A DNA stretch of 63,609 nucleotides, counting the filler, from Kipferlia bialata (Eukaryota): the NCBI GenBank assembly GCA_003568945.1. It is 3 parts of 3 records of this genome, joined end to end, with 100 filler letters (N's around TTAATTAATTAA, not from the genome) between each part and the next. Parts side by side here need not be neighbours in the genome. Positions count along the whole stretch, not along the records: positions 1 to 26,799 come from BDIP01000177.1; 2 more parts are not named here. The stretch is one strand, 5' to 3'. Of the stretch, positions 382-63,568 are shown in pieces. Position numbers and translations under genes: made by a program. How positions within the stretch are numbered: the first letter of the stretch is position 1; every line of letters begins with the position of its first letter. The notes under the pieces are model-generated. The model saw only the letters and a list, made by a program, of their open reading frames with translations, did not search any database and was not told the DNA's origin.

Positions 382-3300
382 TCACAGCTGTGACCAGGCA
401 GTGTCCATATCATACCCAGCCTGCCCAAAACCTCCCACGGCTAGGTTCTCGGACTCTCTCTCGTGCTGCTCGGCACGGGTCTTACGCGATTGGGACAGAG
501 ATGATCGAGTAGAAGTGTCACCTCTAGAACTGTGTCTTGTGGATACGAGACCTGGGTCAGGTTAACTGAAGTATTCACAATGACTATTCAGTCCTACTCA
601 TATATATATATATATATGCATACCTCCCATTGTCCTCTGGTGCTTGCCTGTGACTACAGTCGTGGCAGATGGGTCGAGGGGAGGGGGGAACTCCCTGGGG
701 GTGGGGGACATCAATGTATATACATATAGTACTGGTATCAGATACATACATACATGCACCCACCTGAGCCTCCCCATGACGCATGCCGCCATGCTCAGCA
801 CCTTGGACACGGGTTGGTATGCCGCAACTAGGTCCACAGAGGATGACCCGGACCCAGACGGGTCACTCCTGCTTAGACCACAGTTGCTGGGGTGAGAGGG
901 GGGGAGGGAGGGAGTATCACTATAAATGATAGTCGGTGTGGGTAGTACCTGTAGGCCGAGAGGGTCTCGAAGAACAGGTCGTATGGCGTGAGCAGGGAGG
1001 TGGACACATACCACGACTCGATGGCTGACACCCCGAACCACAGCAGATACAGGATGAGGGCCTGGGCATAAGGGAGGAATCATCACAAAGAAGTGTATAT
1101 AGGTATCTAGGTACCTGTCTCTCGAGGCTCTGTGTGGACACTCCAGCCCAGACCTTGAGGAGCACAACCTAGGTGAGACGGAGGGTGCGGGGGAGAGAGA
1201 GATGGCTTACTTAGTGCACCTTCCAGCCCTTCTTACTATCGCTATCACTATCACGGTCAGCATCCCTATGCGTACCTTCCAGCCCTTCTCCTTGGCGGGC
1301 ACAGCCTCAGGGGGTGGTCCCCCATCTGCATCGGCCATGCTCTGGACTAGCTCAAGCACACCCTGGTTGTGAGACTGTATATAGACTGATATGTATATAT
1401 ATATATATATACATATATACATAAGGTGTATATAGATGCCATGCTCTGCACTAGCTCAAGCACACCCTACTGTTTAGGGTGTATATAGACAGATATGTAT
1501 ATATATATATATATATACATAAGGTGTATATAGATGCCATGCTCTGGACTAGCTCAAGCACACCCTACTGTTTAGAGGGTATATAGACTGATATGTATAT
1601 ATATATATACATAATGTGAAGATAGATACCATGCTCTGCACTAGCTCCGGCACACCCTGGTTGTGAGAGATGTCTACTATAGGGGAAGAGAATACGTATA
1701 TCAGTAATGTGCGCGTACCCTCTCGAGGTGCACCCCCCTCAGGTTGGCCGTGGACGTGCCCATCGTGGCCAGACTGCCCACATAGGACCCAGTGCCTAGG
1801 GAGGGCTGTCTAGAGTGGCCCAGGGAGACTGTGCCAGAGTGGGCAGTGGAACCAGGTATGGAGTGGCCCATAGACCCCTGCCTAGAGTGACCCAGGGACC
1901 TGGCAACGGAATAGGCAGTGCTGGGAGTGAGGTTGGGAGTGGAGAGATAGACAACCAAGCTACAAGGAACAATTACTTTTATAGATGCATATATATCATA
2001 CTAACAATACTAATACCACTTACCCCTGTGATAGAGACGACATGGACAGGCTGAGGTCTGACACTTCGCTTGACTCCTCCTCACTGCTAGACACCTCCAG
2101 TGGTAGGGGGGCGGTCTCCTCCTCTCTGAGGTCTATGTCTGTCAGGCCATCAGATGACTCCATGTCAACATCGGACACAGACAAGGGGCCATCAAAGACA
2201 AGACCCCCTTCCCCGCCATCTGGGGTGTCGCCGAAGGATGGCTCTAGAGACCCCCTGTAGTGCGGGGACGTGACCCGTGACACCGCCCTAGAGAAGGAGG
2301 GGGAGACGACGCGGCTCACTGACCGAGAGAGCTCCCTCTCTCTGTCACGGTGTTCGTTATGCTGGTGGCCTGGATGGTCTCTGAGGTAAGTGGGTTGCAG
2401 AGTGTGTGTGACAAGACTTATGTGTGACAAGGTGTGTGTGACATGTTAGGCACATACCTGTCCTCTCTCATTCTGACCCTCTCTGCCTCCATCTTTGCAG
2501 ACTCTCGCCTCAGGTGACCCAGGATGTAGGGGACAGCGAACATGACCAGGACAATGAAGACAGACACGCCGTCCTGAGGGATCAGAGAGAGAGAGAGAGA
2601 GAGAGAGTGGAGAGAGAGAGATCTAGTACGCACCGACAGCTCTCTCAGGGGCAGGCTAGAGAGACCACCCCCCAGTGATGCAGCTACCAGGGACAGGTTA
2701 CCACAGAGAGCAGACACCCAGGAGTACTTGCGGGAGTGGAGGTAGGACCAGTCGGAAGAAGAGGTCAGGATGGCCTGACAGGTGAGAACGGCACACCCAC
2801 TCATAGGAGAGAGTGAATGTGTTGAGTATACCCTACACACACATGTATGTACATTCTCTATACATATCCCACCTGCACTGTGCCCATGATACCCACGTAT
2901 GACGTCAGTGCCCAGGTACCCTTGGAGCCAAAGACCATCAATGACAGGGCTCTGGGGTGCCTAAGAAGGGAGGAGTAGGCAGGCTTCAGCGTGATGCTCG
3001 ACTTGTGCCTTGACCTGGGGGTCAATAGGGGGGTTAGAGAGAGAGAGTGGGGCAGATATAGTGTTGCAGAAGCAATGGGAGGAGACACCGTCTATATATA
3101 CCTGAAGATAGCCCTCATAGGAGGTATATATGTGTATGCATGTACATACACATATGTATCTATACCTGAGTATGGCTCTCATGATGGTTGGGAACAGGGT
3201 GTGCCCTGCCATGGATAGGACAGTGACTGGTATGACAACACCAGGGTGCCCTGATACATCCTCTATGCCACCCCGGGGGGTCAGGGAGAGACCTAGTGTC

Positions 3301-7282: not shown

Positions 7283-8710
7283 TCAGTCCTTGCGGTCCTT
7301 CTTGTCCTCTCTCCTAACCTCTCTCTTGTCTCTGGAGTCTCTCTCTCTCCGGGAGTCTCTGTCCCTATCCCTCCTGTCTCTCTCATCGCGCCTCTCCCTG
7401 TCATCACGTCTGTAGTCCCTATCATCGCGCCTGTAGTCCCTACCCCTGCGGTAGTCTCTGTCTCTGTCTCTGCGGTAGTGGTCCCTCCTGTCTCTCTCGT
7501 ATGCCTCTCTCTCCACCTCTCTCATGTGTCTGTCCCTCACCACGGCACCCCTGCCCCTCACTGTCCTGCCCCTGCCTCTGGGCTTGGCCTCCTCTCTCTC
7601 TCTCTCCCTCTTGGCCTCGGGCTCCTTCTTCACCTCTCCCTCTCCCTCTCCCTCTCCCTTCTCCTTGGCTTCGGCCCTCTCCTTCTCTCTCCTCTCCTCT
7701 CTCTCCTTCTCCTTCCTCGCCCGCCTCTCTCTCTCCCTCTCCTCCCTCTCCTTGTACCTGTTCACCATGGGACGACTGGCCTTGGAGGCATGTTGGGAGG
7801 TGATGGTCTGGGGGTGAGACAGAGGGGGGGGGGGGTACACTCACATGTATGTATATACACACTTCTGTACTACACATACCTGCACCAGATCGTCATACTC
7901 TGTCTGGAGCTCCTTCCTCACACCGGCAAAGGTCTGGGGGTGAGGGGATGTAAATATAGTCACTGCGGCGTATACACATACACATATACACATACACTCA
8001 CCCTAGTGACAGCTGCTATCTCGTCCATCTCCACCATCCTCTGCTGTCTGTCTGTGGTGTCTGTCACAGCTATGTGGGTGGGGGGGACAGCCTGCTCCTG
8101 CTCATCGGCTGACCTCTTCACCTGCCTCTCCCCCTCGGGCTCTCCCTTAGCCTCTGCCTCCTCTGCCTCCTTGGCGGCCTTGGCCTCCTCCTATATATAA
8201 GTGATATCCATACAGCATACACCTATATATACACACATATATATATGCCTCCTCCTATAGGTGAGTGAGCGATACACCATACACACGCACACACATATAT
8301 TCACATATACTCTATATACAAATACTCCTTGGCGGCCTTGGCCTCCTCCTATATATAAGTGATACATACGCTATATGAATATTGGAATCCTCCAATATAT
8401 GAGTGGTACATACACTATACTGAATATCCGTACATATAGTGCATCACACACACATACCTGCATCCTGCGCCTCTCCTGCCTGGACATGACCACCCCACAG
8501 TCAGAGATGGTGAGGGGGACTGGGTGTAAGAAGCAGTAGTAGAGAGACACTATGGAGTAATGGGGAGAGTGGTACAGATAATCAAGATATGAGAAATATG
8601 GAAGAATGCTACAGTACCTACGGGCTTGTCCCTCTCCCCAGTGGGTGTCTTCTCGATCTTCCTGACAATGTTCATGCCACCAGCCACCCTCCCAAACACA
8701 CAGTGCTTGC
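7283..8710 (-). CDS. 3' part of a cyclophilin with RD/RE-rich C-terminal tail (splicing-associated type); 5' part missing
   Basis: GKHCVFGRVAGGMNIVRKIEKTPTGERDKPVVPLTISDCG is the C-terminal end of a cyclophilin domain, followed by charged exons and an RDRDYRR-rich last exon ending at 7283. Confidence 0.85.
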
Positions 8711-8955
8711 CTACAGTCAGTATATGAGAGGGAGCAAGGTGAGAGGTGCGTCACAGTGCAACCAGTCAGGATACTGGGGTATATATATGGGGGGGGGGGG
8801 GGGGGGGCTTTCCCTCCCCGCGGGGGGGGGGGGGGGAGGGGGGGATGGGGGGGGGGGGGGGGGTAGAAGATCGCGGGAAACGATAGAGTAGGTGCAATGT
8901 TATCATGTGAACTGTACATTCACGACACACCACAAATGGGTACTTGATGTCTCAC

Positions 8956-9656
8956 CTGTAGGCCCTCACGCTCTCCTGGTCTGCGTCCATGTCTATAGAC
9001 ACATTCACAGCCACATAGGCCAGAGGTCCATAGCGGTCCTGGAGTCAGAGAGAGTGGAATATTCCCGGTGTCTCGTGAGTAATTCCATCAAAGGTAAAGA
9101 GAGTGGAAAGCCTACACAAACAAATAGCAGAAGATAGACACTGGGAGCAACAGCAATCAAATGCGATATAGACAGTAATTGCTACCTTTTGTCACTGGAA
9201 ACACAAATAAACAGATATACATCATATACAAAAGAACTATGTATGAACTACAGTGACCCTACCTCGAGGAAGCTGTGGATCTTCGAGTCCTGGGGCAGAG
9301 ACCGGTCTGCAGTGCTGTACCAGCCAACCATGAGGGTCTTAGCGTGGATCTTGCGGTGCATGTCGGCCATGGTGTCACTGTACAGAGAGTCGAAGAACCA
9401 CACGTTAGCATCAGACTGGTTCTCATCGAATGGCACGGCGAAGCAGTCATTCACAATGATGGAGTCGCCCCGGCGCTCTCCCAGCAGCATTCCCACCACT
9501 CTCTTGTGCTTGGCCCCCCTGGCCTGTCTGTCATAGTGGTCAGCCACCTGGAGTCAGAGCAGTATATATATGGGGGAAACAGCAATATGAGTACGACACC
9601 TGCAACAGCACAGTCGGCCGCACTGTCACGTGTACATCAGCACCCACAGCACTCAT
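8956..9656 (-). CDS. RPN8: 26S proteasome lid subunit Rpn8/PSMD7, N-terminal MPN domain only (3 exons)
   Basis: MSAVGADVHVTVRPTVLLQ|VADHYDR...KRVVGMLLGE...NDCFAVPFDENQSDANVWFFD...VGWYST...SKIHSFLE|DRYGPLAYVAVNV...VRAY; exons 9656-9600, 9547-9263, 9038-8956. Confidence 0.85.
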
Positions 9657-10917: not shown

Positions 10918-11339
10918 ATGGACAGTTTCTACGGGGGCGGCCTCCTGTTTAAGGGTGCCCCTATAACACTTGGGTTGAGCATAGCCACCCTCGCCCTCTC
11001 GGTGTTCCCAGGGGTGTTCAGGTATATATTATACTATCACATGGCACGCTGTGTCTGGGGTTCATGCCATTTACATACTATAACTAGAGCTGCCTCCCAC
11101 CCAGGTGTGTGTCCCTCCTCATGTTCCTCCCAGACAGTATGGCATCTCAGCCCTGGAGGTGGGCCACGGCCCCGTTCGTGTCACCGCACCCGGCCACTCT
11201 GGTATGGGCAGATACTAGTGGCCACACTGTTCCTGTGCCACACTCATGTTTCTCTCTCTCTGTCCCCCTCCCCACCCTAGCTTCTGATTGGTGTTCTCTG
11301 GCTCAGAGGGGCAGCCCTGGAGAGGCTCTGTGGTAGCAG
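10918..11339 (+). CDS. 5' part of UBAC2/Dsc2-like rhomboid pseudoprotease
   Basis: MDSFYGGGLLFKGAPITLGLSIAT...QPWRWATAPFV...LLIGVLWLRGAALERLCGSR contains the APVT-, WR- and ER..GS-type motifs. The gene is interrupted at poly-C 11423-11468. Confidence 0.6.
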
Positions 11340-11421: not shown

Positions 11422-11463
<42 letters not shown>

Positions 11464-11734
11464 CCCCCACACTTCACACTATACATCAATCTTTCTACTA
11501 CCCCCTCTATCTCTCCCTCTCTCTTATGCTGGGCCGATATTGGTGTCATCGCAACAGAGTACTCTCTCTCTCCCTCTCATTCATATATATGTATCTCTTA
11601 CCTCAGGCTGATATTGATGTCATTGCAGCAAAGTGCAGTTCCTCTCTCTCTCTCTCTCCCTCTCTCTCTCTATCTCACTCTCTCTCTCTTATACCTCAGG
11701 CTGACATTGATGCCATTGCTGCAGAGTGCACTTC

Positions 11735-11780
<46 letters not shown>

Positions 11781-11788
11781 TATACCAG

Positions 11789-13057
11789 GCGGATATTGAT
11801 GTCATTGCTGCAGAGTGCAGTGACGAGATTGAGCTGGAGGAGAGGCTGCTCAAGCTAAAGGTAATGCCGGATACATATAGATAGAAATATAGTATATATG
11901 TGTTGTATATGTTTATATGTATTGTATCTAGTTGTGTGATTGAGCTGGAGGAGAGGCTGCTCAAGCTAAAGGTATATCTGGTTTGAATATACACTATATA
12001 TGTGTAGTACATGTGTATATATGTATATGTAGTGATGAGATTGAGCTGGAGAGGCTGCTGAAGCTGAAGGGGTAACAATGGAAGAGCATGACCATGAGAC
12101 TGAGGAGTATATATATATACATATCAGCACTTCGTATTTACGTGAGTGTAGTGAAAATATCGATACTCTATATGTGTAGGTATTTTTTTATTTATTTCAT
12201 TCTTAGGAGTCCATGGACCAGCAGGACAGTGAGACTGGGGAGTATATACATATATCACCATATATATATATGTGTATGTGAGTATACAGTATAGGAGTGT
12301 ATACTATACTAACCCACTAGGAGAGTATGGACCAGCAGGACAGTGAGACTGGGGAGTATGGGGACGAGGGGCTGAATGCATTTGGAGAGGTGGCACCAGA
12401 GGATGAGGACAGGTACCTAGAAACATATTGATGGGTGTATTTTTATATATTGAGAGAGAGAGAGATAGAGAGAGGGGGGAGAGAGAGAGTATGCATTTGG
12501 AGAGATGACACCTGGGGAGGAAGATAGGTGTGACATTTCTATATATATAGAGTGAGGTTAGTATATGGCGTATCTACAATAACGATTTTGTGTATATTGT
12601 TCCTCTCACCCCAGGGAAGTGAGTCTGCCTCCTTATATATACATGTATATACATGTATAAACATAGACTTGTATATACATGTATAAACATGATATATACT
12701 TCACCATTTTCTATTTCATATGTACTATAACTCCTACATATATAGTATGTCTCACCCCAGGGAAGTGAGTGAGTCTGCCTCCTTCAACTTCGATGGCTTT
12801 GAGGCAGTGGCTAAGGTATTGTTGTATATATATATAGTAATAGTATAGTTATAATATAGTGTATATATATATATAATATGGTATATGCCTCCTTCAACTT
12901 CGATGGCTTCGAGGCAGTGGCTAAGGTATTGTTATATTATATATGTGTGATAGTACAGGTGTATTTTAAATTGTGATTCTTATTCTCTCTCTGCATACTT
13001 CTCACTCCAGCAACCGGCCACCCCTACGCAGAACCGGGCCGCATCTCCGGTACGTCA

Positions 13058-13097
<40 letters not shown>

Positions 13098-15285
13098 AGC
13101 CCCTTATTTCAGGCTGGAGACATGATGTCTTCAGGCAACCTCAACTCCACCCACCCACCTAGAATCAAGATAGAGACTCCCGCATTCCCAGAGACAGGTA
13201 TCTCTCTCTCTCTATCTCTCTCTCCTCCTACACCCTTCATACAAGACTGTAATATCAGTATTCCCAGACTATTGTCCCTCTCTCTCTCTCTCTCTGCCTA
13301 CCCCCCTTTTTACCCCAGACGATGAGGGAGAAAGGAAGGGGAAGAGCAGCCAGTGGTCCCAGGTATGGAGAGCGATGTATATACTCCTGTATATGACATT
13401 AATATGTATATGTGTGTCTCTATCTTATCTCGCAGGAGGCCGTGACCCCCAAGACCCTCTTCTGTGACAGGGATGACACATCCACACAGGCACTGCAGGT
13501 AAGACTACGTGAACCCATTCCCTCTCTCTCTCTCCCCCGCCCCCTCTCTATATATATTATTGTATGTTTGACGGGTGTATAGATAGATAGATAGATGATA
13601 CATATACCCCCCCCCCCCTCACCCCAGAGTGCCAGAGCAGGACAGAGAAGGCGAGAGAGGGCATTCCCTGAGGTGTCTCTGAGGTATGTATAGTGTATGT
13701 ATATGTATGTATTAGTGATTATGTGTTCATTGAAGGCTGGGATTGACAGAGAAACAGTGGAAATGAGAATGAAATGTATGAATATGTGAATTCACTATTT
13801 ATATGCTAATCCCAGAGAGACCTCTCGTGGAGGTAGCCTGCGTACCACAAGGCGTCGCAAGACCATAACCAGGTATATATACTTGGATGTATATCTTCCT
13901 CACCCATATTTCTCTTGATCTAGCCCCTTAATTCTCTTCAGCTAGACCCTTATTACCAGGCCTGCCATGTGGGATGCCGATGGTGATCAGCAGAGCTCCA
14001 AGCAGACTAGGGAGAGGGAGAGAGTCCACCTGGAGAAGTGGTCTAGACAGGTATGGACTCTCGTTTCAAATACTAACACTTGTTTCTTTGTTTTCCTTTG
14101 TTTTCTCTCTCTTGCTGACACAACAGGTGCCCCTTGGCGTGAGTGAGAGGGAGAGAGAGAGGCAGGAGAGAGAGAGAGCCGAGGTGGAGAAGGCCCTGGA
14201 GATGGAGAGGTGTGTAATACACTATGGTTTATATATTACATCATGATGCTGTTTTCTTTCTGTCATTGATACCTAGGTTCAGAGGTGGATCCGTGCCCCT
14301 TCTACTGACTGTGCACAAGATGGACTCATCTCCATCAAAGGTATACTATTAATATATAATTTATGTGTGTAGTATAGTATATATATATGTATATAGAGAG
14401 AGAGTATATGTATAGTATATGCTGTGCACAAGATGGACTCATCGCCATCAAAGGTATTACTCAATGATATGTATATATATGTGTGTTTATCTTATATACA
14501 TATGTGTGTAATGTGGATGTGAGATGTAGCATTAACCCTCAGGGCAAGGGTCTGGACACCTCTCCTCCATGATATAGGATACATAGATTATATAGTATTC
14601 ATCAGTGTATACAGTACACTATTCCTAAGTATGTATATAGTATACTTACCACTAGGGCAAGGGTCTGGACGCCAGAGGCTCTGTCGGTGAGAGGGAGAGG
14701 GAGAGAGACAGGGAGAGGGAGAGGACTGTGAGTCGGGAGGACAGAGACACTCAGAGTCTGAGGGGCAGCAGAAGGAGTGCTAGACACAGAAAGGGAATGA
14801 GCAGCAGGTAATATTTAGTTGTGTCTATATGGATGATATATATTTATATTGATATATTCAGGCCTGTCCTTAAGAAGTACATATTAATATATCATGTATA
14901 TATATTGTTGTATATATATATTAATAGTTATACTGACCCCAGGCCAGCCCTTGAGAAGTCCTCTGACTCCTCGAGTGATGAATCAGTATATTATACATCT
15001 ATATATATATACATATGAATATATATTTACAAATGTACATGTAAATTAATACCTGTGCTTACCCCAGGCCTGCCCTTGAGAAGTCCTCTGACTCCTCGAG
15101 TGATGTATCAGTAGATTGTGTATCTATCCATATATATACCATATACCATACTATATTTCATGGTAACGCCAGGCCTGCTCTTGAGAAGTCCTCTGACTCC
15201 TCGAGTGATGAGAGGGACAGGGAGTACAGCAGGGTGTCACACAGGTCATCTAGGAGGAGATCTAGGTAGTTACACACACACACAC

Positions 15286-15316
<31 letters not shown>

Positions 15317-15506
15317 GAGGGGGGGGTGATAGGGAGTACAGCAGGGTGTCACACAGGTCATCTAGAAGAAGGTCAAGGTATATACATACATATGTGTATA
15401 TATATTGACAGAGAGAGAGGGGGAGAGAGAGGGACAGGGAGTACAGTAGGGTGTCACACAGATCGTCTAGGAGGAGATCTAGGTATATACATAGTATATG
15501 TATATG

Positions 15507-15539
<33 letters not shown>

Positions 15540-16229
15540 GAACAGGGAGTATAGCAGAGTGTCACACAGATCATCCAGAAGGAGGTCAAGGTATATACAT
15601 AGATTGTCTACCTATAGATATTATATATCTCTACAAAGGTGGCTCACCCTTACTATAGTACCATTCAACAGTCATCATCTCACCCCCCAGCCGTGGCAGT
15701 AGCCACAGGAGCTACAGGAGTCGCAAGCACAGGTATCACACTCTGTATAGCACTCTCCAGTTACTCTCTCTCTCTCTCTCTCTCTCTCTCCCCCTCTCTC
15801 TCTCTCTCTCTCTCTCTCTATAGTATATCTGTCTCACTTTAGGCGCCACCGTCACCGCCACCACCACCACAGTGACTCAAGCTCAGAGGACTCAGGGTAC
15901 GTAGTGTGTTTTGTTATATGACTCATTTCGCTGTATATTTCTTTGATACTATGAAATAATGTATTGAGTGTCCTCACCCCCAGCCCTGCCCCCCTCCCTG
16001 CCAACTGTGTGACCATGGACCAGTTCAACGTGAGTGGTGTGTATATATGTATGTATGAATATACGTATGAATATATATACTATTGTTGTATATATGCAGG
16101 ATATCTCTTGTCAGCTGGATGTGTGTCCATGGACCAGTTCAACGTGAGTGGTCTCATCCCTCTCTCTCGCTCTCCTTTTCGTCTCTCACATGTCTATCTG
16201 CTGTCAGTCCCAGACCCTGACCATCTCTG

Positions 16230-16261
<32 letters not shown>

Positions 16262-16363
16262 CCTCTCTCTCTCTCCTGTGCATGTATACATACATATATA
16301 TATCCTCACTCCCAGACCCTTGTCCAGAGCATCCAGACCCTGACCACCTTTCTCTCTCTCTCC

Positions 16364-16395
<32 letters not shown>

Positions 16396-19069
16396 GTGTA
16401 TGTATATATATATATACTCACCCCCAGACCCTTGTCCAGAGCATCCAGACCCTGACCACCGAGTTCACATCATACAGGTATAGGGTTGTTCTCTATTACT
16501 ATATATAAATATTCTCAGTTTTGAATTGTTAGAGAGACACTCCCACTCTCAATGTATTTACTACATATGCCCTTTTTACCCCTCATGTCCACCATGGAGG
16601 ACAGGGTGTCCAAGATATATTCTCTCTCTCTCAATGTATGTACATATATACAATATATTTATACTAATCTACTATATATACCATTTTAACCCCCAAATCC
16701 ACCATGGAGGACAGGGTTTCCAAGATATGCTCTCTCTCTCTCTCTCTATAAATATATATATATCCCTCTCTCTCTATATATAAGTATATATAAATATATA
16801 TATATCCCTCTCTCTATATATATTTTTATATATGTATATATCCCCTCTCTCTCTCTATATATATATATCTAACCCCCCAGATCCACCATGGAGGACAGGG
16901 TGTCCAAGATGACCAAGGAGGTGGAGAGCAGGTATAGTAATATATATGTGTATACACTATATATGTATATGAATATAAATATATACCTACACATATCCAT
17001 TCTAACCTTCAGAGTCCAGTTCCTTGCCAAGCAGCTGGTTGAGACACTACATATACATATGTGTGTGTCTGTGTATATATACTTACCCAAGTGGCAACCT
17101 ATCTAACCCCCAGAGTGCAGTTCCTGGCCAAGCAGCTTGTGGAGATGAGTTGGATATGGATATTGTATATGTGTATGTATGAGTATATATATATTCACTA
17201 ACCCTTAGGGTGCAGTTCCTGGCCAAGCAGCTTGTGGAGATGCGTGGTGAGTACACCTCCAAGGTGGAGGCAGTGGTGACACAGATAGAGGAGATCAAGG
17301 AGAATGGAAGGTATGAGATATATATATATATATATATGATATATATATATATATATATATATATCTGTGTTTCTGGTTGTGACCCTGTTCTGTATAGTGG
17401 ATATGTCTCTGTATGTCTATATATACATTGTTTCTTTCTCAAACGCCAACCTCAGCGAGAGGGAGAAGGAGAGAAGTAGGGACAGAGAAAGGGAGAGAGA
17501 GAGATCCGTCTCTCCCTCATCAGACAGTGAGAGTGACAGAGAGAGGGAGAGGGAGAGAGAGAGAGAGAGGAAGAGAGAAAGAGAGAGAGAGAAGAAGAGA
17601 GGGAGAGAGAGCACGAGAGGGAGAGGCAGAGAGTCATCTCGCAGAGGGAGAGAGAAGGAGAGAGAGATTACCCTCAAGAGGCCTGAGTATGCGTACAACC
17701 CACAGATGTGCCACCCTGATATCAAGCTGGGCAACGAGAACACTATAGCTCAGAGACAGGTATAATAATATGTGTCTATGAGTGTATACGTTTGCTGTCT
17801 ATACAGATATCTAGCTACATATATACCGTCTCAGTAGTATAGTCCCTACGGCCCTCTGTCCCCTTTTGTTTCCCTGAATACCTGTGATACACATTAACAC
17901 AGTACCTCTCTAACTTCTTAGGACGGTGACTCTGGGTGGCACGGTGTGCACATTGGGGAGGAGTGGAGCAAGGGGATCAACACAATCACGTTCAAGGTAC
18001 TGATGCCTAATGATACATGTATATATATAGATAGGTAGATATATGTTTATATATATGATATATATAGACATATATATGTATCAGTGCATATATATGTGCA
18101 CATAGGGGAGTACGGGAATCAACACAATAACATTCAAGGTGCATACATAACGGATATGTGTATACTATGTGTGTATGTAAATACCCATATGGTCTCATCT
18201 CACTGTCAGATTGAGCGCCTGGCCAGCAACGGAGGCATCATGATTGGCATATGTAAGCCAGACGGCCCGTACGTATTGTGTGTATATATTATATATATCA
18301 CGTATTGAGAGTCACTCTGGTATAGTATACAGACAGTATCCTCATTCTCCCTGCCTCACTCCCTCACTGTCTCTCTCTAGCCCCTTACCCCAGTGTGGAG
18401 GGTATCTTCCACCAGAAGGACACCTGTGCACTGTTCAACGATGGCCACAAGGCAAAGGGAAACAAGGTATATCTATAGAGAGATAGATATATGAAAATGT
18501 ATATATATACTGTACCTTATGTATATACTCTATATATTCCATTATGTTATTTGCATGTGCCCTGTTCAACGATGGCCACAAGGCAAAGGGCAACAAGGTA
18601 GATATGTATCTATATATATAGATATACTTATATATATAGAGAGAGGGTAGCAGGTATATAGATAGATTAGTATGTGTGTACTATATATGTATGCCCTGTT
18701 CAACGATGGCCACAAGGCCAAGGGGAACAAGGTGTATACACACACAATGATAACAAACATAACTGTTGGACACAGTACATCGTAACTACTATTTTGCATT
18801 CGTTCTCTTATCGATAGATGCAGAAGTACGAGACTGGCAAGCCCTTTGATGATAGTATTGCTCCTCTGACTCCAGAAGAACGATACACTCTCTTTCCTTC
18901 ATTCAAGTCTTCGAGTTCCTTTCTTTGAGTTATTTTTCTTCTGTTCTCTCATCCCCAGATGCAGAAGTACGATACTGGCAAGCCCTTCACCCAGGGTGAC
19001 CTAGTGTCTCTCATAGCCAACATGGACAAGAGGTCACTGGGCTTCTTTGTGAATGGTGAGTGTGTACTA

Positions 19070-19104
<35 letters not shown>

Positions 19105-19246
19105 TGTCTCTCTTACCATAGGTGAGTATCTCCACACTGCCTTCGAGCGCATCCCCCGTACCGTTGTCCCCTACATGGAGATATGGGCTCCTGGTGATGC
19201 TGTCTCTGTGGTGCCCACACCTGAGAACCTACTCTCTGGAATGTAG
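11789..19246 (+). CDS. Large low-complexity/coiled-coil protein with C-terminal SPRY/B30.2-like domain; 5' end missing
   Basis: More than 20 in-phase exons ending ...HPDIKLGNENTIAQRQ|DGDSGWHGVHIGEEWSKGINTITFK|IERLASNGGIMIGIC...GKPFTQGDLVSLIANMDKRSLGFFVNGEYLHTAFERIPRTVVPYMEI; TAG 19244-19246. Confidence 0.75.
14935..15592 (+). repeat. Intronic partial-exon tandem 'echo' repeats around exon 15173-15265 (type example)
   Basis: Two or more upstream copies of acceptor+PALEKSSDSSSD and three downstream copies of DREYSRVSHRSSRRRSR+donor, separated by TA/GA-rich spacers. Confidence 0.9.
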
Positions 19247-19734
19247 TAGAGGCCATGTAGTAGAGAGAGAGAGAGAGAGAGAGAGCACGCTGTCTCTGTG
19301 GTACCCACACCCGAGGGTCTGCTCTCTGGAATGTAGGGAGTGAGGGGGAGTTCTCTCCCATGTATAAAGAGAGTATGTGCCCCTACTCTTTGCAGTGAAG
19401 GACAGTGTCTCTTTCACAGAGAGATCGTGATGTGAGATGAGTCTTACACACACGGTGTTTGTTGTATGTTTATGTATGTATGTGTATGTGATTTCCTATC
19501 GGCGTGGCACGGAGTAGTAGACTTAGAATAGATGTTTGGCGTCTGCGATATCTAGCTATCTATTACGCATCAGATGTGTTGTGTGGTGTCCCTGGTGAGG
19601 GTCTATTCTCTCCTATAACGCCTCAGATATATTGTGTATCCTGTCTCTTTGTACCCTTGAGAGAGTGACTTAGTTTGTAGAGGGTGGCCCCAACGTACTG
19701 TAGGCCTAGATCTTTGGCCAATCCTCCTGGTATA

Positions 19735-26799: not shown

Positions 26800-26899
26800 N
26801 NNNNNNNNNNNNNNNNNNNNNNNNNNNNNNNNNNNNNNNNNNNTTAATTAATTAANNNNNNNNNNNNNNNNNNNNNNNNNNNNNNNNNNNNNNNNNNNN
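26800..26899. other. Artificial contig spacer N44-TTAATTAATTAA-N44
   Basis: 100-nt linker with stops in all six frames; identical copy at 53682-53781. Confidence 0.97.
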
Positions 26900-33718: not shown

Positions 33719-33891
33719 CCCCTCCCCCCCCCCCATTCCCCCCCCCCCCCCCCCCCCTCTATCTCCCTTACCCCAGCCTCACCTCCCTTCTCTTCACCCT
33801 GTATTTCTCTCTCTCCCCACCTCCTCTCCCCCTATCTTCCTCACCCCAGCCTCACCTCCCTTGCCTCCCTCTCCCTGTATGTGTGTCTCAG

Positions 33892-34056
33892 GATGTGCTG
33901 TTCGGACATGGGGGTGGATGTCTGGTACACTCTGCAGGTACAGAGAGTAATTACATTCATATGCTGAAATACAGTGATACACACATAGACATATATCATG
34001 ATAGTGGTCAGACATGGGAAGCATCATCAGCAACCCTCTACCGTCTCTCCGACAAT

Positions 34057-34089
<33 letters not shown>

Positions 34090-37000
34090 GTCTTGAATAT
34101 ACACAGGTTGTTGTATCTCTCACTTACCTTCCTCACCCACAGCGTCTCTCTCTTCACTCAGTGCACAATCTGCGCATATACATTGGGGAGAGAGACCCAC
34201 TGAGTACCAACAAGCCCAGCAGAGCCACACCTGAACATGTAGAGCACCCTCTGCTCTCTCTCTCTCTCCCTATATTGTCAGTCTCATTCTGGAGATGCAT
34301 AGGGTCGCTCATATTCGGTGCATTGCCCTTGAGAATCACAGGTATTTCTCTCTCTCTATATGTCTCTCAATATGGGTACATCCATACCTCTCCTCTGCGT
34401 GTGCCTCCAGAATAGCCCCCCCCCCCCCTTCCCTCTCTATCTCTCTCTAGATCTTGTATCTCTTACCCCCAGGCCCTGCCTCCCCTTCTCTCTCTCTCTC
34501 CGGCATGTGCCTTGAGGTCAATGCCCTGGGCTGGATGCAGCTACTCAGGGATAGAGTGAGAGAGAAGACAGAGGGTGGAGAGACTGATGCAGAGCCTCCA
34601 AAGGCCAAGGGGTATATATCCCGTATGGTCACCAGGTTCTGTGTGGCCAGGGTACCCGCAGCGATAGCCATGCTGTGCCGTCTCTCTGTCCATGTGACTG
34701 ACACCTCTCTCTCTGTCACTCTCCCCCATACTGGAGATGTCTCAGTATATGGCACACCCATCGATGACCCGTGCCCACACTGCATGTCTCTCTCTCTCTC
34801 CATCGACTCTCTCTCCCTCAACGCCTCTGCTGCCACCGACTTGGAGAGGGAGAGAGAGGGGGAGGGAGGGGCTGGGAGATACCTCGCAGACACCTGTGGG
34901 GTGAGGGTGGCAGTACGCAACCTAGCTGTCTCTGCCTCTCTCTACCATGCTGTGGAGAGGTGCCCCCCCCTGTACCCCCCTCGTGACCCCCACCACTCCA
35001 GACACCCAGTCACAGACGACCACTCCCTCTCCATACACCCTCTGGGTACAGCCCTCACCTTCTGCCTCCCCTCTGCGTCTCTGTTTGTGTGCAACATGCC
35101 CTTGTTGGGTATGTCCCACTATGCAGCACAGGCAGTCCCGGTGGTACAGAGCCTGGTACATGGCCTACCCGTCATGTCTCTCTCCCTGCACCAGACGTCT
35201 CTCTCTCTCTCTGGCCCCCATCCCCATGGGTGTGACCCAGTGCCCCTGCTGCTGCCATACGTAGGTGGGGTAGGCTTAGACATAGTGTGCTATGATATAC
35301 ATATATGCATTCATACCTCTTTAGTGTAGGGGGGACTAGATCTTGTGCGCTATGATGCATATATGCATTCATACCTGTAAGTGTAACACATTCCCTCGGG
35401 TAGATAGTGCTCCGACACAATGCCCAGTACACATTGCATAACTACCACACCCACACATTGCCTCTAACCCTCTCAGGTATAGAGAGTGCCCTGGTGAGTG
35501 GGGGTGTCCCTGAGGATCTTGTAGGCCCTGCCTCTCTCTGTAAGCCAGGCGTGTGCCTGGCCCTATCTGTGACAGACACTGACACCCCATGCACACTGGA
35601 TGAGGCAGCATACACCTCCCACTCCACCCCCCACCCTCCACCCTGTGATGCCCCTGTCCTGGTATTGTCCACAGGCCTACTGGGTAGTGTGGCATCTACT
35701 GTTAGGGCCATGTCGATACTGATGGGTGCAGAGGACTCAGCAGAGACGGGGGGGGAGGGGGAGAGTGGTAGTGTTACAGTGGCAGAGGGACCACCAGCGG
35801 AGAGTGTGTCCCTCCCGCCCCTCCCTAGTCTTGTCCCATCCTTTGCCATTGGTCTCTCCCTCTCCCTCTCTGCTATGTCCATGGTACTGGTGTCAGATGA
35901 GTGTGTATACCCCAGGATATGCTGTGTGGAGGGGTATGTACCCAGGAACATGGCTGTGGACAAGCACATGAGCAGTGTGGTGTACAGGTGGGTGGTGGGA
36001 GGTGTTGCATGGTGGAGTAGTGCACAGTGCATATGTAACATCACTATTGGTCTTCACAAATGTCAGTCATATCAGTATGTGCATCAATTTGTCTAGTATG
36101 CCACTGACCCCTAGGCACAAGGGCGCCCCCTGTCTAGACACCTATGGCACGGCATACCTCACACACAGAATACAGACCCTGGAGGTGGGACACAGACATA
36201 TCCACTAGTATATGAATATGTGTGAATGCTGGTGTTGTAGGCTACTATATCACTCACCCCTACCCCTCAGGCCGTGTCCTCTGTGGCTGCTGTCTCTCCC
36301 TTGACCATGGCCACTCCTGTCCCACCCAGTGCATACTCTACGCACCACAAGTATCTAGAGAGTGACAGGTTCTACAGGAAGTACTTCGGACTAGGCAGAC
36401 AGAGGGCGAGGAGGTGGGGGTGTTTGTGTATATGTGGAGGTATACACCGCGATAGGAGATGTACTTCGTTGCATCTCGTACTCCTCACCCCCAGGGTGCA
36501 TGGTGCCAGGGTGGCTGACCTGTTCCTCGAGCTGCCCCAGCCTGTGAGGCCCTACGTGCTACATGAGAATGAGCCATACCCAACCAGAGACCCATACTCA
36601 GGTCTGACTCATGTACTATTTTGTTACATCACTGGACTTCTCAACTGACTATATCTATCCATGTTTTGGCTATGCATGTTCTCACCTTCCAGGTGCCCGT
36701 GTGGCGTGTCTCAAGGACCTCGACAGAGTGAGGATGTGGAGGAGCATGTGCATAGCATACGAGCCACGCACGCAGGTATCCATCCAAGCTTGCATCATGA
36801 TGACTCATGCAGTATAGTAGACTGTTATGACCATCTCTAACCTAGGCCATCGGACCAACTGCCCTATGCATAGGTGCCGCAGGTGTGTGCATGGAAGTGG
36901 TGTACCAGATACCCCAGTCAGGGACAGAGACCACATGCTGCTCCAGACACCAGAGACAGACATATAGGTAGATTGAGTCTCTCTCAATATTACTACTCTC

Positions 37001-53781: not shown

Positions 53782-53803
53782 ATTATTTACCATCGGCCCC
53801 CCC

Positions 53804-56078: not shown

Positions 56079-56606
56079 ATGCTTCGCCGAAGAGGCCCAT
56101 CGACGCCTAACATGGCGCCCCTAGAGTCCAGGGTGTCTCAGTTGGAGGAGAGTGACGCCCAGGCTGAGACAAAGGTGAGTCTGGATCTTGTTTATCCTCT
56201 TATAGGCTGTAGCAGAGCATGTAGACCCATGGGGAGGTGGATATAGGTGCTATGTGGTTGCTGCTGAGTATTTAGACTCGGTTTGGGTCATTACTTTGCT
56301 GGGTTTTGATATTCTGACATATTGTCACTCCAGTCTCAATGTGTCCAAGCCACCTCAAAATGCTGTGATATAACTAATATATGTATATATAGAACATGTT
56401 GAGGTGTGAATTGGGGTAGCTGGCTGTGGTATGTTGTGTATTGCCATGTGTCACTGAGTCTTGTCTCACATTCTCACTTTCTCTTGGTGAGTCTTGACTG
56501 CTAATAGGGATATTATTGCTATTATTGCATACGCAGCACTTGCGTGTTCTCATACATATATTTGTGTCCTCTGGTATCTGTTGGCTTCACTCTCTCTCTC
56601 TCCCCC

Positions 56607-56641
<35 letters not shown>

Positions 56642-57550
56642 GTACTCACCCCCCAGTTCACCACTCTGATTGAGACCTCCATCGCGGATGCCATGGCATC
56701 TCTCAACAGAGAGATAGAGGCACTCGAGACTGCCCAGGGCAGGCAGTTCAAGGTGAGATGGGTATAGACATATAGTCTATAGCATAGTATGTATAGTACT
56801 GATAGTTATTATTATATAGTATGTGGTAGAGGCACTCGAGACAGTCCAGGGCAGGCAGTTCAAGGTATGATATGGATGGGTATGGATATATGTATGGTAT
56901 ATGTATATAGTTAGTATGTATATATAGTTAGGCAGTTCAAGGTATGGGTAGATGTGTGGATAGAGTATAGCTCAAGTAATTGGTATTATGGGTGTATGGA
57001 GTGTGTCCCCCCTCTCACCCCCAGGACCTGTCCCAGTCCCTTCATATGTGAAGGATATATATCCATGAGTATATACGTGTATATAGTATAGTATGTATTC
57101 ATATCTAGTATACATACCCACCCCCAGGACCTGTCCCAGTCCCTTGGCAAGCACCAGTCCGCACTCAGGTATATATGGGAGTATATACATATTAGTGTGT
57201 ATGTATGCTCAGTATATTCCCACCCCAGGTCCCTGGAGGCTGCTTCCTCTGAGACTCAGTGTATATATAGTACATTTCATATAGTTTATACAATTTAGGA
57301 ATTAATATATACAACCAGTGAACTATATCTTCTAACCCTTAGGTCCCTGGAGGCTGCCTCCTCTGAGACTCAATGTGTATATAGTATCATACTACCGTAT
57401 AGTATATATATATATGTGTGTATACTGAGTGTATATTCCCACCCCAGGTCCCTGGAGGCTGCCTCCTCTGAGACTGACAGACAGCTGACAGGGGTGGAGC
57501 AGACACTCAGTGCTCACAAGGTATATAGTATTGTATATATAGATATATGA

Positions 57551-57602
<52 letters not shown>

Positions 57603-59893
57603 CATCTGACAGGGGTGGAGCAGACACTCAGCGCTCACAAGGTACAGCATAGATTTCCACTACTGTTTCTATATTGTGCTACTCTTCTAATACACACAAG
57701 TATGTCTCCCTCAGGACCAGATGGCGTCTGTATCTGTCTCTAAGTATATATAGGTATATATGTGTATAGTAGAGAGTATCACTAGTAGTATTTTGATACT
57801 CTATATAGATACACATGCCTCTAAACCCCAGGACCAGATGGCGTCTGCCTCTGCCTCTGCCCGTGATGCATTGAACACACAGAGAGACAGGGTGGTCAAG
57901 GAGATAACTAGCATAAGGTATGTTATGTTATATGTATACATGTAGGTATATGTAGGTATGTATGGTCTCACCCCAGGACCCTTGTTGCAGTCACCAGGAG
58001 ACAGCTCGAGACATCGTTCACAGCCCTGGCGGCTAGGTATGGGTTGATGGTTAGAGTGATATATGTATCATGTACAACTTGTCTAACCCCCTCAGTGTTG
58101 AGCAGGAGAGGGACAATGATAGTATATGTTGTATATATATGTATATATATGTGTGTGGTAATTGATTGTATTATTCTGACCCCCTCAGTGTGGAGCAGGA
58201 GAGAGACAGTGACAGGGAGAGAGAGAGAGAGGCAGAGGGGGAGACCAGGCAGAGAGAGGCCGCCCTGACAGAGTCTCTTACTAGTGTCAAGGGGAGGGTG
58301 CTGGCACTGGAGGTATATAGATTAGTGGATATATACAGAAAACACCGAAATACTTACCCCCCAGGACTCCACCCATGCCCTGGTTCATACATATTCATAC
58401 ACATATATATGCATATGTATTTGTATGCTCTGAATACTTACCCCCTCAGGACTCCACCCATGCCCTGTCCCTGTCCCATGACAAGGTGGTGGCATCAGTG
58501 GCAGAGTGCAGGGCACAGTGCCACGAGGATAGTCAGGTATATATAGTATATAGTATATATATAGTATATATATAGTATATAGTATATAGTATATATATAG
58601 TATACATCATACATATATTGTGTATATATATTGAGTTTATAGTGGCAGAGTGTAAGGCACAGTGCCACGAGGATAGTCAGGTAGAGGACATATACATGTA
58701 TATAGAGATACAATGCCTCATATATAGATATGAGTATACGTATTGAGTATATAGTGGCAGAGTGTAAGGCACAGTACCACGAGGATAGTCAGGTAGAGGA
58801 TATATACATGTATATATATATAGATATATATATATATATAGATAGATACTATGCATCATATGTATATATATGTATATATATTGGGTATATAGTGGCAGAG
58901 TGCAGGGTACAGTGCCACGAGGACAGCCAGGTACAGGGTGCACTATGATATACATTTCAAATATACTATAATATATTTGGAGACAGTGCATATATATATG
59001 CTATATGCTTACACTCACCCAGGCCACTGCGCAGCGTGTGTGTGAGGAGTACCAGACTGGGGTTGAGGCCTCTGTCTCTGTCCTGTCCACCCAGTGCACT
59101 GCGGCACATGAGTCAGTCAGTGCCATCAGACAGACACAGACACAGCACAGTGAGGGGGTGGATAGTGCACTCAAGGAGATGAGGTACATGNNNNNNNNNN
59201 NNNNNNNNNNNNNNNNNNNNNNNNNNNNNNNNNNNNNNNNNNNNNNNNNNNNNNNNNNNNNNNNNNNGAGGTGTGTGTGTATATTGTATATGTATACAGA
59301 CACAGCACAGTGAGGGGGTGGACGAGGCATTGAAGGAGATGAGGTGTGTACTGAATAGGATATTGTAGATATATGCGTATATGTATGAATTTGCATCTGC
59401 CTCACCCCAGGACCCTCCTTACGACCTCCATCTCTTCCCATGCTGCCTCGGTTGATGCCCTGACACACACCATGGAGACACATGCCCAGGAGGCACAGCA
59501 GACATACACACCAATCGAGGAGTACAGGGTATGGTGGAGAGATAGTACATTCATATATATGTAGATTAGTTGGTACTCATAAATATATGCACACATCACT
59601 GACCCCCCAGGCCTACAAGGCTGAGAGGGAGGTAGAGAGAGAGAGAGACCTTGCAGAGACCAAGGAGAGAGAGGCTGCCTCTGCCACAGAGACACAGACA
59701 CAGATGGAGGCACTCAGACAGACAGCAGCGGAGGAGGTATGTGAATGGATTATGTGAATGGATATGTACTGTGTACACCACTGCATACCCCTCACCCCCC
59801 AGACTGCCTCTGTGCGTAGTGCCCTGGAGGCTGAGGTAGAGACACTCACACAGACACAGACACAGGACAGGGAAACACAGAGGGAGAGGTGAG

Positions 59894-59928
<35 letters not shown>

Positions 59929-61220
59929 TACATATTGATTTATATATATGTGTGTGTATGTATATATATATACAGACACAGACACAGGACAGAGAGGCAC
60001 AGAGGGAGAGGTGAGACATTGTTGTAGATATGTAAGTGTGTATATACATCTCACCCCAGCGCAGCCTCTGCCTCCACCGCCCTCAACACCCTGTCCACCA
60101 CCCTGTCAGCACAGATTGACACCCTGACCTCTGCCCTTGAGGCTGAGACCCAGACTAGGGCAGAGGGGGAGGGGGAGACTAAGGCATCCATTGAGAGGGT
60201 GGCACAGGGTGTGGAGGCTGAGGGGGCAGAGAGAGAGAGGCAGGGCGAGGAGGCCAGGGTGCACACCCAGTCCCTGATAGAGTCACTGAGACAGGAGATG
60301 ACACGGGAGATGGACAGGAGACAGCAGGAGCAGGTGGGTGTTAATACTGATAGGTATATGGGTTCATATATTCATCCCTTTCACCATGTCTCACACCCTG
60401 ACAGCAGCTGCCTCTGCCTCCCATGCCTAACTGGCCCCATACACTATATCAGTACATAACTATGATACACTACTGCATATTGTATTGTATACTAACCTCA
60501 GACCGATGCTGCCTCAGCCTCCCACACAATATCATCATGCATCTATATATATATATGACTGAGATACATTACTCTATATTGTATACTATTGCATACTAAC
60601 TTCAGACCGCTGCTGCCTCTGCCTCCCATGCTGCCCTCTCCTCCTCCCTGTCCACCCTGAGGAGTGACATGACACACACAGTGGCAGAGGCAGAGGAGAG
60701 GCTGGCACAGAGGATGGAGGGGCTGGATAGGGATAGGAGAGAGGCAGTCGGTACGGGTGGATGTGGATATATACAGTGTATATGTACACGCACATATGTA
60801 TTTACCTTTGTATCCCCTCACCCCCCAGCGTCTCTCTCCTCCCGGCTTACCCTCCTGGAGGATGGCCTGTCAGCCCTGACAGCACAGACAGACAGAGGGG
60901 TTGAGGCAGTCAGCGAGAGGTATGTATCCACTATGAGTACTTGTTTTATATATGTATACATCTATGTATATACCTATTGTCCGCTCACCCAGGCTATCCA
61001 CTGGCCTTGCCTCTCTGACCCAGACCCAGACTGAGGATAGACAGAGGGGAGAGGACAGGTGCAACGCACTCGAGGTATGGGGTATTGCGATATGTTGGTG
61101 TATTGGCTAACCATATACCCCCCCCCCCCCAGTGCGCACTCTCTCTCTCTCTCTCTCCATACATATCCGCCCTCACCCCCAGGCCTCTGTCTCTGCCTCA
61201 GTCTCTGCCCTCGATGACAC

Positions 61221-61251
<31 letters not shown>

Positions 61252-61319
61252 ATGTATTCATATATATACCCTCACTCTAGGCCTCAGTCTCTGCCTCAGT
61301 CTCTGCCCTCGATGACACC

Positions 61320-61370
<51 letters not shown>

Positions 61371-63568
61371 CATATGTATATACCCTCATACTAGGCCACT
61401 GTGACTGCCTCAGTCTCTGCCCTAGATGACACCCTCTGCAAGTACAGGACAGGGGCTGACAGACACGTGAGGGATGTGACGCAGGGTCTGCACACATCCA
61501 TAGTGGCCCTGAGAGATGGGGTGACACACAGACTGCAGGGGGTGGAGAAGAGGGGGCAGGACGTGGAGAGGTATGTGGGTGGATATGTATATATATATAT
61601 ACATACATACACCCCCTGACCCCAGGCGTGTGTGTGATGTCGACAGAGAGGTCTCTGCCTTGAGGACAAGGCTTGACACAAACATGCAGGGAGAGGCACA
61701 CAGGGCTAGCCAGGTATACTAGATCTATACTTTTCAGTGTGTTAACATAGGTCAACTGGATAATACATCTCTATACCCTCTCACCCTCTAGTTGCTGGGC
61801 CAGGTGCATCGCAGCATTAGTATACATATGTGTGCGTATACAAATTGGATACTATGTATTTACCATCATATTCTACTTACCCCCTAGCTCCTGGGCCAGG
61901 TGCAGCGCAGCATAGATAGATCTGTGAGTGCCCAGGCTGAGGTGACAGAGAGAGACATCAGGCAGACGGTGGCAGAGCAGAGGGAGAGGTATATATTTTG
62001 TAGTGTGTAGAGAGTATGTATATATATATATATATTAGAATCAGAGAGAGACATCAGGCAGACGGTGAAGGAGCAGAGGGAGAGGTATGATATATAGTGT
62101 ATATAGAGTGTGTGTGTGTGTATATATGTATATGTTAGTATCAGAGAGAGACATCAGGCAGACAGTGACGGAGCAGAGGGAGAGGTATGATATGTAGTGT
62201 AGTATATAGTATATATATACATGTATATCAGTATCAGAGAGGGACATCAGGCAGACGGTGAAGGAGCAGAGGGAGAGGTATGAAGCACACAGATGTTGGA
62301 TATTCTATGTATATGGTGTATACATACTATGTAGTGTGTGTATACATACTCATACCCAGAGATGCCTCGACCCGTGCCTGTGTGACCACCCTGTCTGATG
62401 ACATCGAGGCCCTGGCAGACAGTGTCCGGAGGCAGGCACAGACGCAGCAGGAGGTATGTAGTATGGGTACATTAATATATATACCGTGTGTATGTATACT
62501 ACACCCCTTACCCTCCGAGGCCCTGTACATTGTGGAGAGTGCATGTGCTAATATATGTATATATATACTAACGTGTACATATATGTATATACAGATATCC
62601 AATCTCTGTCTCACCCCAGGCCCTGTGCATTGTCGAGAACGAGGCTGCATCCCGTAGGGCAGTCCTTGCGAAGAGGGTCACAGCTGGGCTGGAGGAGGTA
62701 GGGGTGGATGTGTGTATCTATCTGTGCATATGTATATGTGTATGTCCCTGTATTCACCTCTGATTCCCTAGGTAAAGGCCACCCACACATGTATTCGTAT
62801 TGTTTTACACATATGTATGCATCTGAGGTCAGTATCAGTATCATACTGTGTGTGTATATACCTATATATATGTCCCTGACCCCAGGTCAAGGCCACTGCC
62901 TCTGTGCAGGCATCGGCCATGGGCATGATGAGGGAGAGGTAGGGAAGTATATGTATATATATATATGTATATATACCATATTAATATGTATATACTATAC
63001 TATAAACCACTATACTCATTGTTCATCGGCCATGGGCATGATGAAGGAGAGGTATGATGTATATGTCAATACAACTTGTATGTAACATATACGTTAGGAT
63101 TTGTCACGTTTATATTATACTTGTCCCTCTTTCTCTTCTTCCCCCCCAGACACACCTCTCTGTCTGAGTCTGTGTCAGATACATGTATATGCAGTGTATA
63201 TTCTATGTTAATAGTATCCTGGATGTTCCTTACCCCCAGACACACCTCTCTGTCTGAGTCAGTCTCTGCCAGGCTGGGTGATGCTGAGTCACTCCTGTCA
63301 GTGCAGACAGAGGCACAGGCACAGCACGAGACAGAGGTAGTATATGTATATATGTATAGTTATATATAGACATTAATATATGTATATGCACACAGAGGCA
63401 CAGGCACAGGCTGAGAGTGAGGTATGTAGAGTATTTTATTATTTATACAGTATTATTAATACTGATATGTATATATATATATATACTATGGGATGGTATA
63501 TATATACATCTATCAGTGCAGACAGAGGCACAGGCACAGCACGAGACAGAGGTGTCTCTCTCTCCCTC

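Follow-up and report, generated by a model that had tools for sequence, protein, structure and literature searches.

How can copies of exon sequence that lie in introns, absent from the main mRNA, differ from their exon mostly at sites that leave the protein unchanged? This question arises at exon 15173-15265 of a gene of Kipferlia bialata, where the flanking introns hold several partial copies of the exon (hereafter echoes). The window, i.e., the whole stretch of DNA that was analysed (63,609 nt), is intron-rich eukaryotic sequence composed of at least three contigs joined via N-linkers. The original prediction, made from these letters, was that echoes differ from their exon almost only at synonymous sites and that they evolved under protein-level constraint, whether as divergent alleles captured by unequal crossover, as cassettes that recombine or convert into the active exon, or as alternative exon halves used in mRNA.

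Half-exon copies and the genes around them

The whole analysis rests on nine genes of the window, chiefly two (A and H, Table 1). The 707-aa frame of gene A is identical to the last 707 of the 804 aa of P0001, a K. bialata hypothetical protein, and gene H was modelled by hand. The seven other genes, the frames of which are less certain, were predicted by a small gene finder for which A and H served as the training set; it recovered 23/26 and 20/23 of the exons of these two, respectively. Each of the 179 modelled exons was aligned to its flanking introns using a codon-blind score and an exon-specific threshold taken from non-adjacent introns. This gave 65 echo hits across the window; removal of 5 doubtful hits and trimming of one to its last block left 60 curated echoes.

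Echoes are anchored at exon edges: the exon start is where 31 of 33 upstream hits begin, and 31 of 32 downstream hits extend up to the end of the exon. Each consists of half an exon plus one splice site, with prefix copies located upstream and suffix copies downstream. They are 14–56 nt long, with a median period of 110 nt and up to four versions per half-exon. No whole-exon copy was present among the 65 hits, and the largest echo comprises at most 73% of its exon. The inner breakpoint is mostly common to the copies of one family, and the junction-side spacer was alike in 15 of 25 echo pairs, versus 7 for the splice-side flank (P = 0.0014, with pairs that are not independent). These shared junctions indicate that the arrays were copied in place. 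The echo of the last exon of gene A stops at the stop codon and has no splice site, hence the cause does not lie in splicing. Decay was also observed (e.g., 1 synonymous and 9 non-synonymous changes in echo 12078, and a 4-nt deletion in echo 12615).

Echo-bearing exons make up 26 of 49 in genes A and H, versus 2 of 79 in gene F, and the introns of A and H without echoes are somewhat AT-richer as well. A very long gene at 33850-51272 (~79 predicted exons) is almost echo-free and has short introns (median 84 nt) with few AT repeats, and a class II aldolase gene (Pfam; 53869-54876, plus strand) is without echoes. The predicted model of a JAB/MPN-domain gene (Pfam; 7319-9656, minus strand) probably fuses two genes. 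Direct duplications of 20–38 nt, spaced ~100–150 bp apart, occur at 20100/20248, 23711/23816 and 26424/26520, where no gene was modelled, and may be echoes of unmodelled exons. N-runs at 26800-26899 and 53683-53782 hold the TTAATTAATTAA linker, showing that separate contigs were joined, and the N-run at 59191-59267 is a gap within gene H.

Two places in gene A deserve separate mention. In P0001, the prefix echo at 11607-11637 is read with a frame shift (LILMSLQQSA) and forms a small exon that connects 5' exons (10918-11339) to 11789; an RNA contig extends 110 nt upstream of 11789. The P0001 exon at 11607 may be an annotation error adjoining a poly-C run (11423-11460), and an exon may be missing at that run. 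At 12028-12110, a suffix echo nearly abuts a prefix echo that belongs to the next exon and has diverged strongly (peptides MEEHDHETEEY versus MDQQDSETGEY), with 8 nt at the join versus 6 in mRNA; this stretch is a near-intronless junction copy, out of frame.

Table 1. Positions of genes, of exon 15173-15265 with its copies, and of other echo arrays in the window
Feature	Position	Strand	Description	Evidence
Gene A	11789..19246	+	26 modelled exons, 707 aa open frame, C-terminal SPRY domain; 28 echo hits	Pfam (domain)
Gene H	56112..63336	+	23 modelled exons, 800 aa open frame, coiled-coil-like; 26 echo hits	
Live exon, gene A	15173..15265	+	93 nt, phase 2, RPALEKSSDSSSDERDREYSRVSHRSSRRRSS	Open model; RNA contig
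Suffix echo 1 of exon 15173-15265	15328..15377	+	Own GT donor; 5/5 differences synonymous	
Suffix echo 2 of exon 15173-15265	15427..15482	+	GT donor; 3/3 differences synonymous	
Suffix echo 3 of exon 15173-15265	15535..15590	+	GT donor; 7 synonymous and 1 non-synonymous difference	
Prefix echo 1 of exon 15173-15265	15068..15105	+	Own branch/AG acceptor; 1 synonymous difference	Skipped by RNA joint
Prefix echo 2 of exon 15173-15265	14943..14981	+	Own acceptor; 2 synonymous differences	Skipped by RNA joint
Prefix echo 3 of exon 15173-15265	14862..14878	+	Short, decayed; below scan threshold, outside counts	Alignment
Echo arrays of exons 11789-11860 and 12321-12412	11533..12245	+	Prefix 11533, 11607, 11700, 12078, 12213; suffix 11938, 12028	
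More gene A echoes	16588..18846	+	16588, 16697, 17014, 17115, 18104, 18556, 18692, 18818	
Suffix echo of gene A last exon	19289..19336	+	End is exactly the stop codon; 4 synonymous, 2 non-synonymous differences	
Echo array, exon 1276-1362 of minus-strand gene	1220..1656	-	Three prefix copies, one short suffix copy	

Codon-position bias and divergence along the copies

Alignment reproduced the synonymous counts predicted for the suffix echoes of exon 15173-15265 (5/5, 3/3 and 7/8), as well as those of echo 17014 (5/5) and, jointly, echoes 18556 and 18692 (5/5; predicted at 18559 and 18693). Echo 12028 (predicted at 12032) has the expected synonymous changes with a 3-nt gap, although the count is four of four rather than three. 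In echo 12213, a serine is encoded by TCC, versus AGT in its exon (at 12324); other echo-specific letters include PEGLL for PENLL at the last exon and an AGA-AGG-TCA end at exon 15173. The description 'almost only synonymous' therefore holds for exon 15173-15265, but the examples given were the cleanest ones. Window-wide, under strict codon-blind trimming, 92 of 149 differences in the 60 curated echoes were synonymous and 57 non-synonymous (77/127 synonymous with shared changes counted once). By gene, synonymous changes made up 55 of 80 in A and 29 of 60 in H. The silent bias is real, beyond chance and frame-dependent, but weaker than first described.

Computed over echo-exon pairs, dN/dS was 0.21 for the 60 curated echoes (95% interval 0.13–0.34, bootstrap over 40 families), 0.17 for gene A (0.05–0.35) and 0.37 for gene H (0.26–0.50). 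Values were 0.18–0.24 in the reading frame versus 1.6–3.4 in the two shifted frames. The null for a dead copy beside a constrained exon is a dN/dS of ~0.5 rather than 1, because the live exon keeps accumulating silent changes. This null was rejected for all echoes (bootstrap P(w≥0.5) = 0/5000) and for gene A (0.0012), while gene H was marginal only; binomial P values were ≤0.0025 for kappa 1–5. A dN/dS below that null thus supports the proposal that the echoes have at some time been constrained at the level of the protein. Changes private to one echo comprised 31 synonymous and 20 non-synonymous (7 and 5 when the most divergent echo per family was left out), and the synonymous excess among echo-private changes over a neutral ~25% had P values of 0.014–0.027. 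None of 42 amino-acid changes was a stop; they lean conservative (BLOSUM mean 0.0 versus -0.50, P = 0.027), and 12 of the 42 fall in multi-hit codons. Silent changes were symmetric in GC direction (30 versus 28), a comparison left unused as a test, and non-synonymous changes lean numerically from GC to AT (25 versus 14).

Splice signals are largely intact in the echoes. GT is retained in 28 of 29 suffix echoes and AG in 25 of 30 prefix echoes, and 26 of 30 echo acceptors score like real acceptors (background 9%), with 12 of 30 being stronger than the acceptor of their own exon. Between an echo acceptor and that of its own exon, 4.9 of 14 nt differ, compared with 7.1 for unrelated acceptors. 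At the opposite ends, no suffix echo has an acceptor (0/30), and a GT lies near the inner end of 16 of 30 prefix echoes, which equals the background rate of 51%. The intron flank of an echo resembles that of its exon in 17 of 60 cases, and was recognisable in 2 of the 11 echoes that are identical to their exon half. No correlation was found between flank and exon-half divergence (rho = -0.02), a comparison in which low-complexity flanks limit power.

Divergence is graded along and among the copies. In the outer 8 nt at the splice end, pS was 0.29 and pN 0.028, with pS falling to ~0.1 inside (59 echoes, 12078 excluded). The ratio of inner to outer divergence was 0.51, versus 1.04 in a trimming simulation in which none of 1,000 replicates was as low. 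With rank from the exon, pS rises (0.16, 0.20 and 0.34) and pN stays flat (0.032–0.047); of 13 families without ties, 11 show the higher divergence in the farther copy (P = 0.022). Taken together, the different but intact splice signals, the unrelated flanks and the gradient indicate that the history of the splice-site end is distinct from that of the rest of the unit, reaches further back and was functional. At the end of exon 15173, the four versions also form a mosaic, as the grouping at site 15245 conflicts with that at sites 15254, 15260 and 15263; incompatible sites occur in one of five three-echo families.

Explanations for the silent bias

Transcription and assembly were checked at 11500-16000 using assembled contigs, which drop rare forms, from two runs of one sample, one of them presumed to be RNA from its GT..AG joints at modelled introns. 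RNA joints 11858>12319, 12409>12758, 12813>13009 and 14804>15170 (all GT..AG) skip the intron echoes, and the last bypasses two good acceptors ahead of exon 15173. The adjoining RNA piece (15170-15259) has zero letters other than those of the window, and at each of the 12 diagnostic places that it covers the base is that of the exon; sites 15260 and 15263 lie outside its coverage, probably due to repeat masking. The RNA joints listed do not include the one from this exon to the next. DNA contigs cross the arrays at 11945-12242 (0 differences), 12495-13049 and 14732-14976, the last of which largely covers the prefix echo at 14943..14981, and another piece (15551-15754) includes the end of the suffix echo at 15535..15590. 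Array-spanning contigs have depths of 433–477, versus 357–460 for echo-free pieces. No second allele or haplotype was found in the DNA contigs, with one different letter across 4.5 kb. The A of the window at 14811 (intron +4) is probably a base error, as the DNA contig has C there at full depth. Several arrays are intact at full depth, and the DNA joints listed include no loop-out or exon-echo joint, such as a second, rearranged genome without the spacers (ciliate-type pointer-guided DNA elimination) would be expected to yield, in contigs from which rare forms are dropped.

A codon-position bias arises only from translation, and since echoes are absent from the main mRNA, their letters were either translated elsewhere or earlier, or fed back into the exon. 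We consider it moderately probable that tandem units of ~110 bp were copied in place and that their splice-site ends were overwritten by patches from the live exons of divergent homologs. Echoes likely carry the sequence of exon versions that once worked in deeply divergent chromosomes of the population. A founding tandem duplication across an exon-intron boundary would start an echo family. It would be tolerated because one whole exon remains and the copy has a single splice site, which would be ignored by an exon-defining spliceosome or made harmless by the decay of mis-spliced RNA. Unequal exchange in place would let the array expand and contract. A divergent homolog would begin to recombine within the exon or echo, as homology is good only there, and the exchange would exit through the splice site into the intron. 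Through the resulting patch, a live exon or an echo would receive its outer end, its splice signal and its flank from the live foreign allele. Such patches would keep loading coding-tested, silently different sequence into the echoes. We infer the donor alleles, as the sequenced strain displays one allele only. Silent-site diversity of ~0.2–0.4 among recombining homologs would be needed, implying cryptic sex or hybridisation, and any recombinational reading, cassettes included, would require a population about as diverse as the observed pS. To our knowledge, the diversity needed is at or above the highest values in eukaryotes. Protein searches for other alleles or paralogs returned P0001 alone, and metagenome scans for relatives found none, a result that is uninformative on diversity. 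Regarding the machinery, metamonads are described as being without Ku/NHEJ, and fornicates as without Rad51A but keeping two Dmc1 (in sections of PMC8516963), and Dmc1 stabilises mismatched joints (in sections of PMC6719624). Figures given for K. bialata are 124,912 introns (body of PMC5874029) and 87 of 174 searched spliceosomal proteins (body of PMC6679479).

A toy model of a population (N = 60), run at hand-picked settings, returned a dN/dS of 0.49–0.94 with exchange between sisters only (7 settings, lethal contraction products included) and 0.14–0.55 with unequal exchange between homologs, mostly with the inner parts more divergent. Sister turnover combined with homolog patches gave 0.15–0.44, versus 0.49 without patches. 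At theta 0.4, the patches yielded a pS of 0.215, a pN of 0.033, rank values of 0.19/0.25/0.27 and GT at 0.98. Modelled inner/outer ratios were 0.83–2.04 with patches and 0.86–2.55 without; the observed 0.51 was never reached, and with 0.83 at best the model is incomplete. Homolog patches also leave the excess of echoes in A and H (26/49) over gene F (2/79) unexplained.

Of the three mechanisms offered by the original prediction, captured divergent alleles nonetheless fit best, although plain unequal crossover with homologs was rejected given its wrong simulated gradient (inner parts more divergent) and patches at the splice end have to be added. Three further candidates were set aside. Independent one-sided invasion for each echo conflicts with breakpoints and junction spacers that are common to copies. 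Remains of an allele with an extra intron conflict with inner ends that have no splice sites and with halves that overlap or leave gaps. An old echo under one-way conversion from the exon conflicts with the outer 8 nt being both the most divergent and the most silent.

Alternatively, the echoes could be back-up cassettes in place, old copies that often recombine with, or convert, the live exon next to them on their own chromosome or its sister, so that harmful echo mutations are purged. This would account for the low dN/dS, the intact splice signals and the strongest constraint lying beside the splice site. It requires no second allele, and none was seen; moreover, a cell without NHEJ or Rad51A depends on homologous repair. 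We regard it as unlikely, given the dN/dS of 0.49–0.94 in sister-only simulations. Exchange fast enough for selection would also delete or homogenise the echo, so that a pS of 0.2–0.3 would again need very high population diversity. Unrelated flanks next to identical exon halves are not predicted either, and no loop-out joint occurs among the DNA joints listed, in contigs that drop rare forms. It also seems rather unlikely that untranslated half-exon cassettes serve as working DNA repair templates, with exon ends being swapped among echoes, live exons and divergent homologs such that selection reaches untranslated sequence.

Ordinary dead tandem copies, with selection acting on the live exon only, would give a dN/dS of ~0.5, the remainder being small-number noise. 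The polarity and one-site geometry are those of plain tandem duplication (31/33 and 31/32 anchored), decay is real (echoes 12078 and 12615, the latter with its 4-nt deletion, and AG lost in 5/30), the gene H interval touches 0.50, and non-synonymous changes show the GC-to-AT lean noted above (25 versus 14). However, the value of 0.5 is rejected for all echoes (0/5000) and for gene A (0.0012), and such copies leave unexplained the silent echo-private changes, the flat pN with rank, the gradient at the splice end and the different intact splice signals. This makes ordinary dead copies improbable.

Translation itself is the simplest source of codon-position bias, and echo halves could be translated in minor or stage-specific transcripts via unusual joining (recursive splicing, trans-splicing or template switching). 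Their splice signals are as strong as real ones (exceeding the own exon's in 12/30 acceptors), P0001 includes echo 11607, read in another frame, among its exons, and 15260 and 15263 fall outside RNA coverage. Yet the four RNA joints skip the echoes, and the RNA pieces listed carry exon letters only (12/12). The missing suffix acceptors (0/30), the background-level GT at prefix inner ends (16/30, 51%) and an echo that sits behind the stop codon of the last exon also argue against it. The proposed use of echo halves in mRNA thus found no backing, with no echo variant joined to the exon in the RNA contigs listed (11500-16000), and we judge it very unlikely. Least probable is an assembler that concatenated alleles or strains. 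The assembly does contain gaps, poly-C runs and microsatellites, and the 15328-15590 interior is spanned by no DNA contig listed, but separately assembled contigs span echo-spacer-echo and echo-exon-echo stretches at normal depth, without a second allele and differing from the window by one letter at most, and up to four versions exist per half-exon (the DNA run is perhaps from the window's own sample, so that contig agreement tests assembly, not sampling).

Relation to known systems and implications

Silent-cassette gene conversion is known from Borrelia vls, Neisseria pilS, trypanosome VSG and chicken immunoglobulin pseudogenes, in which cassettes differ mainly in amino acids. Echoes are similar in being unexpressed, in-frame partial copies near an expressed locus. 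In contrast, most of their differences are silent, and they lie beside ordinary internal exons in several genes; with 77 of 127 distinct changes silent, the amino-acid diversification expected of cassettes is not what they display. Tandem exon duplication that leads to alternative or mutually exclusive exons involves whole exons that have both splice sites and are present in mRNA. Echoes share with these the exon-derived intron copies and the silent bias, but each covers at most 73% of its exon, is skipped by RNA and does not combine acceptor and donor (suffix acceptors 0/30, prefix GT at background).

Dead tandem copies of exon-intron junctions and intron gain by tandem duplication, as portrayed in parts of PMC4974935 and PMC3443670, likewise involve a short unit with part of an exon, one splice site and the same polarity. 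Unlike the introns gained as outlined there (PMC4974935, PMC3443670), echoes make no new intron and the duplicated site goes unused; the mRNA halves do not derive from two copies, as exon letters occur at 12 of 12 covered places. Echoes have the polarity of dead junction copies and are absent from mRNA (four RNA joints in 11500-16000, with contigs that miss rare isoforms). However, a dN/dS of ~0.2 is not neutral decay, the flanks do not decay in step with the exon half, and two genes carry roughly one echo for every exon. Hybrid glycophorins GYP(B-A-B), e.g., GP.Mur, arise from conversion between a live exon and a pseudoexon, and echoes would work alike; in those hybrids (PMC10807541), a paralog acts as the donor and a whole pseudoexon is the dead element. 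Echoes differ in that no paralog was found, the elements are tandem half exons and the outcome is mostly silent. They do show what inter-allelic conversion or unequal exchange predicts, namely mosaic copies (one of five three-echo families) and divergence that rises toward the intron (0.51 versus 1.04).

No description of such half-exon echo arrays was found in the literature searched, and in the article text of PMC5874029 the strings duplicat, allele, heterozyg and ploid have 0 occurrences. The echoes are a real feature and a variant of known processes. The parts are known (tandem duplication, unequal exchange and conversion), and it is the dense, exon-edge-anchored and silently biased product that was not found in the literature searched.

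For K. bialata, a first consequence is that gene models in the genome can take echoes for exons. Strong decoy-like splice sites are ignored in a spliceosome-reduced fornicate, in which exon definition is thereby testable. If the echoes were indeed built from tandem copies patched by divergent homologs, one apparently homozygous genome would hold a fossil sample of population alleles. The echoes would then directly document that very divergent homologs recombine, through cryptic sex or hybridisation, and would provide a diversity estimate for a free-living metamonad, a member of a group with unusual DNA repair.
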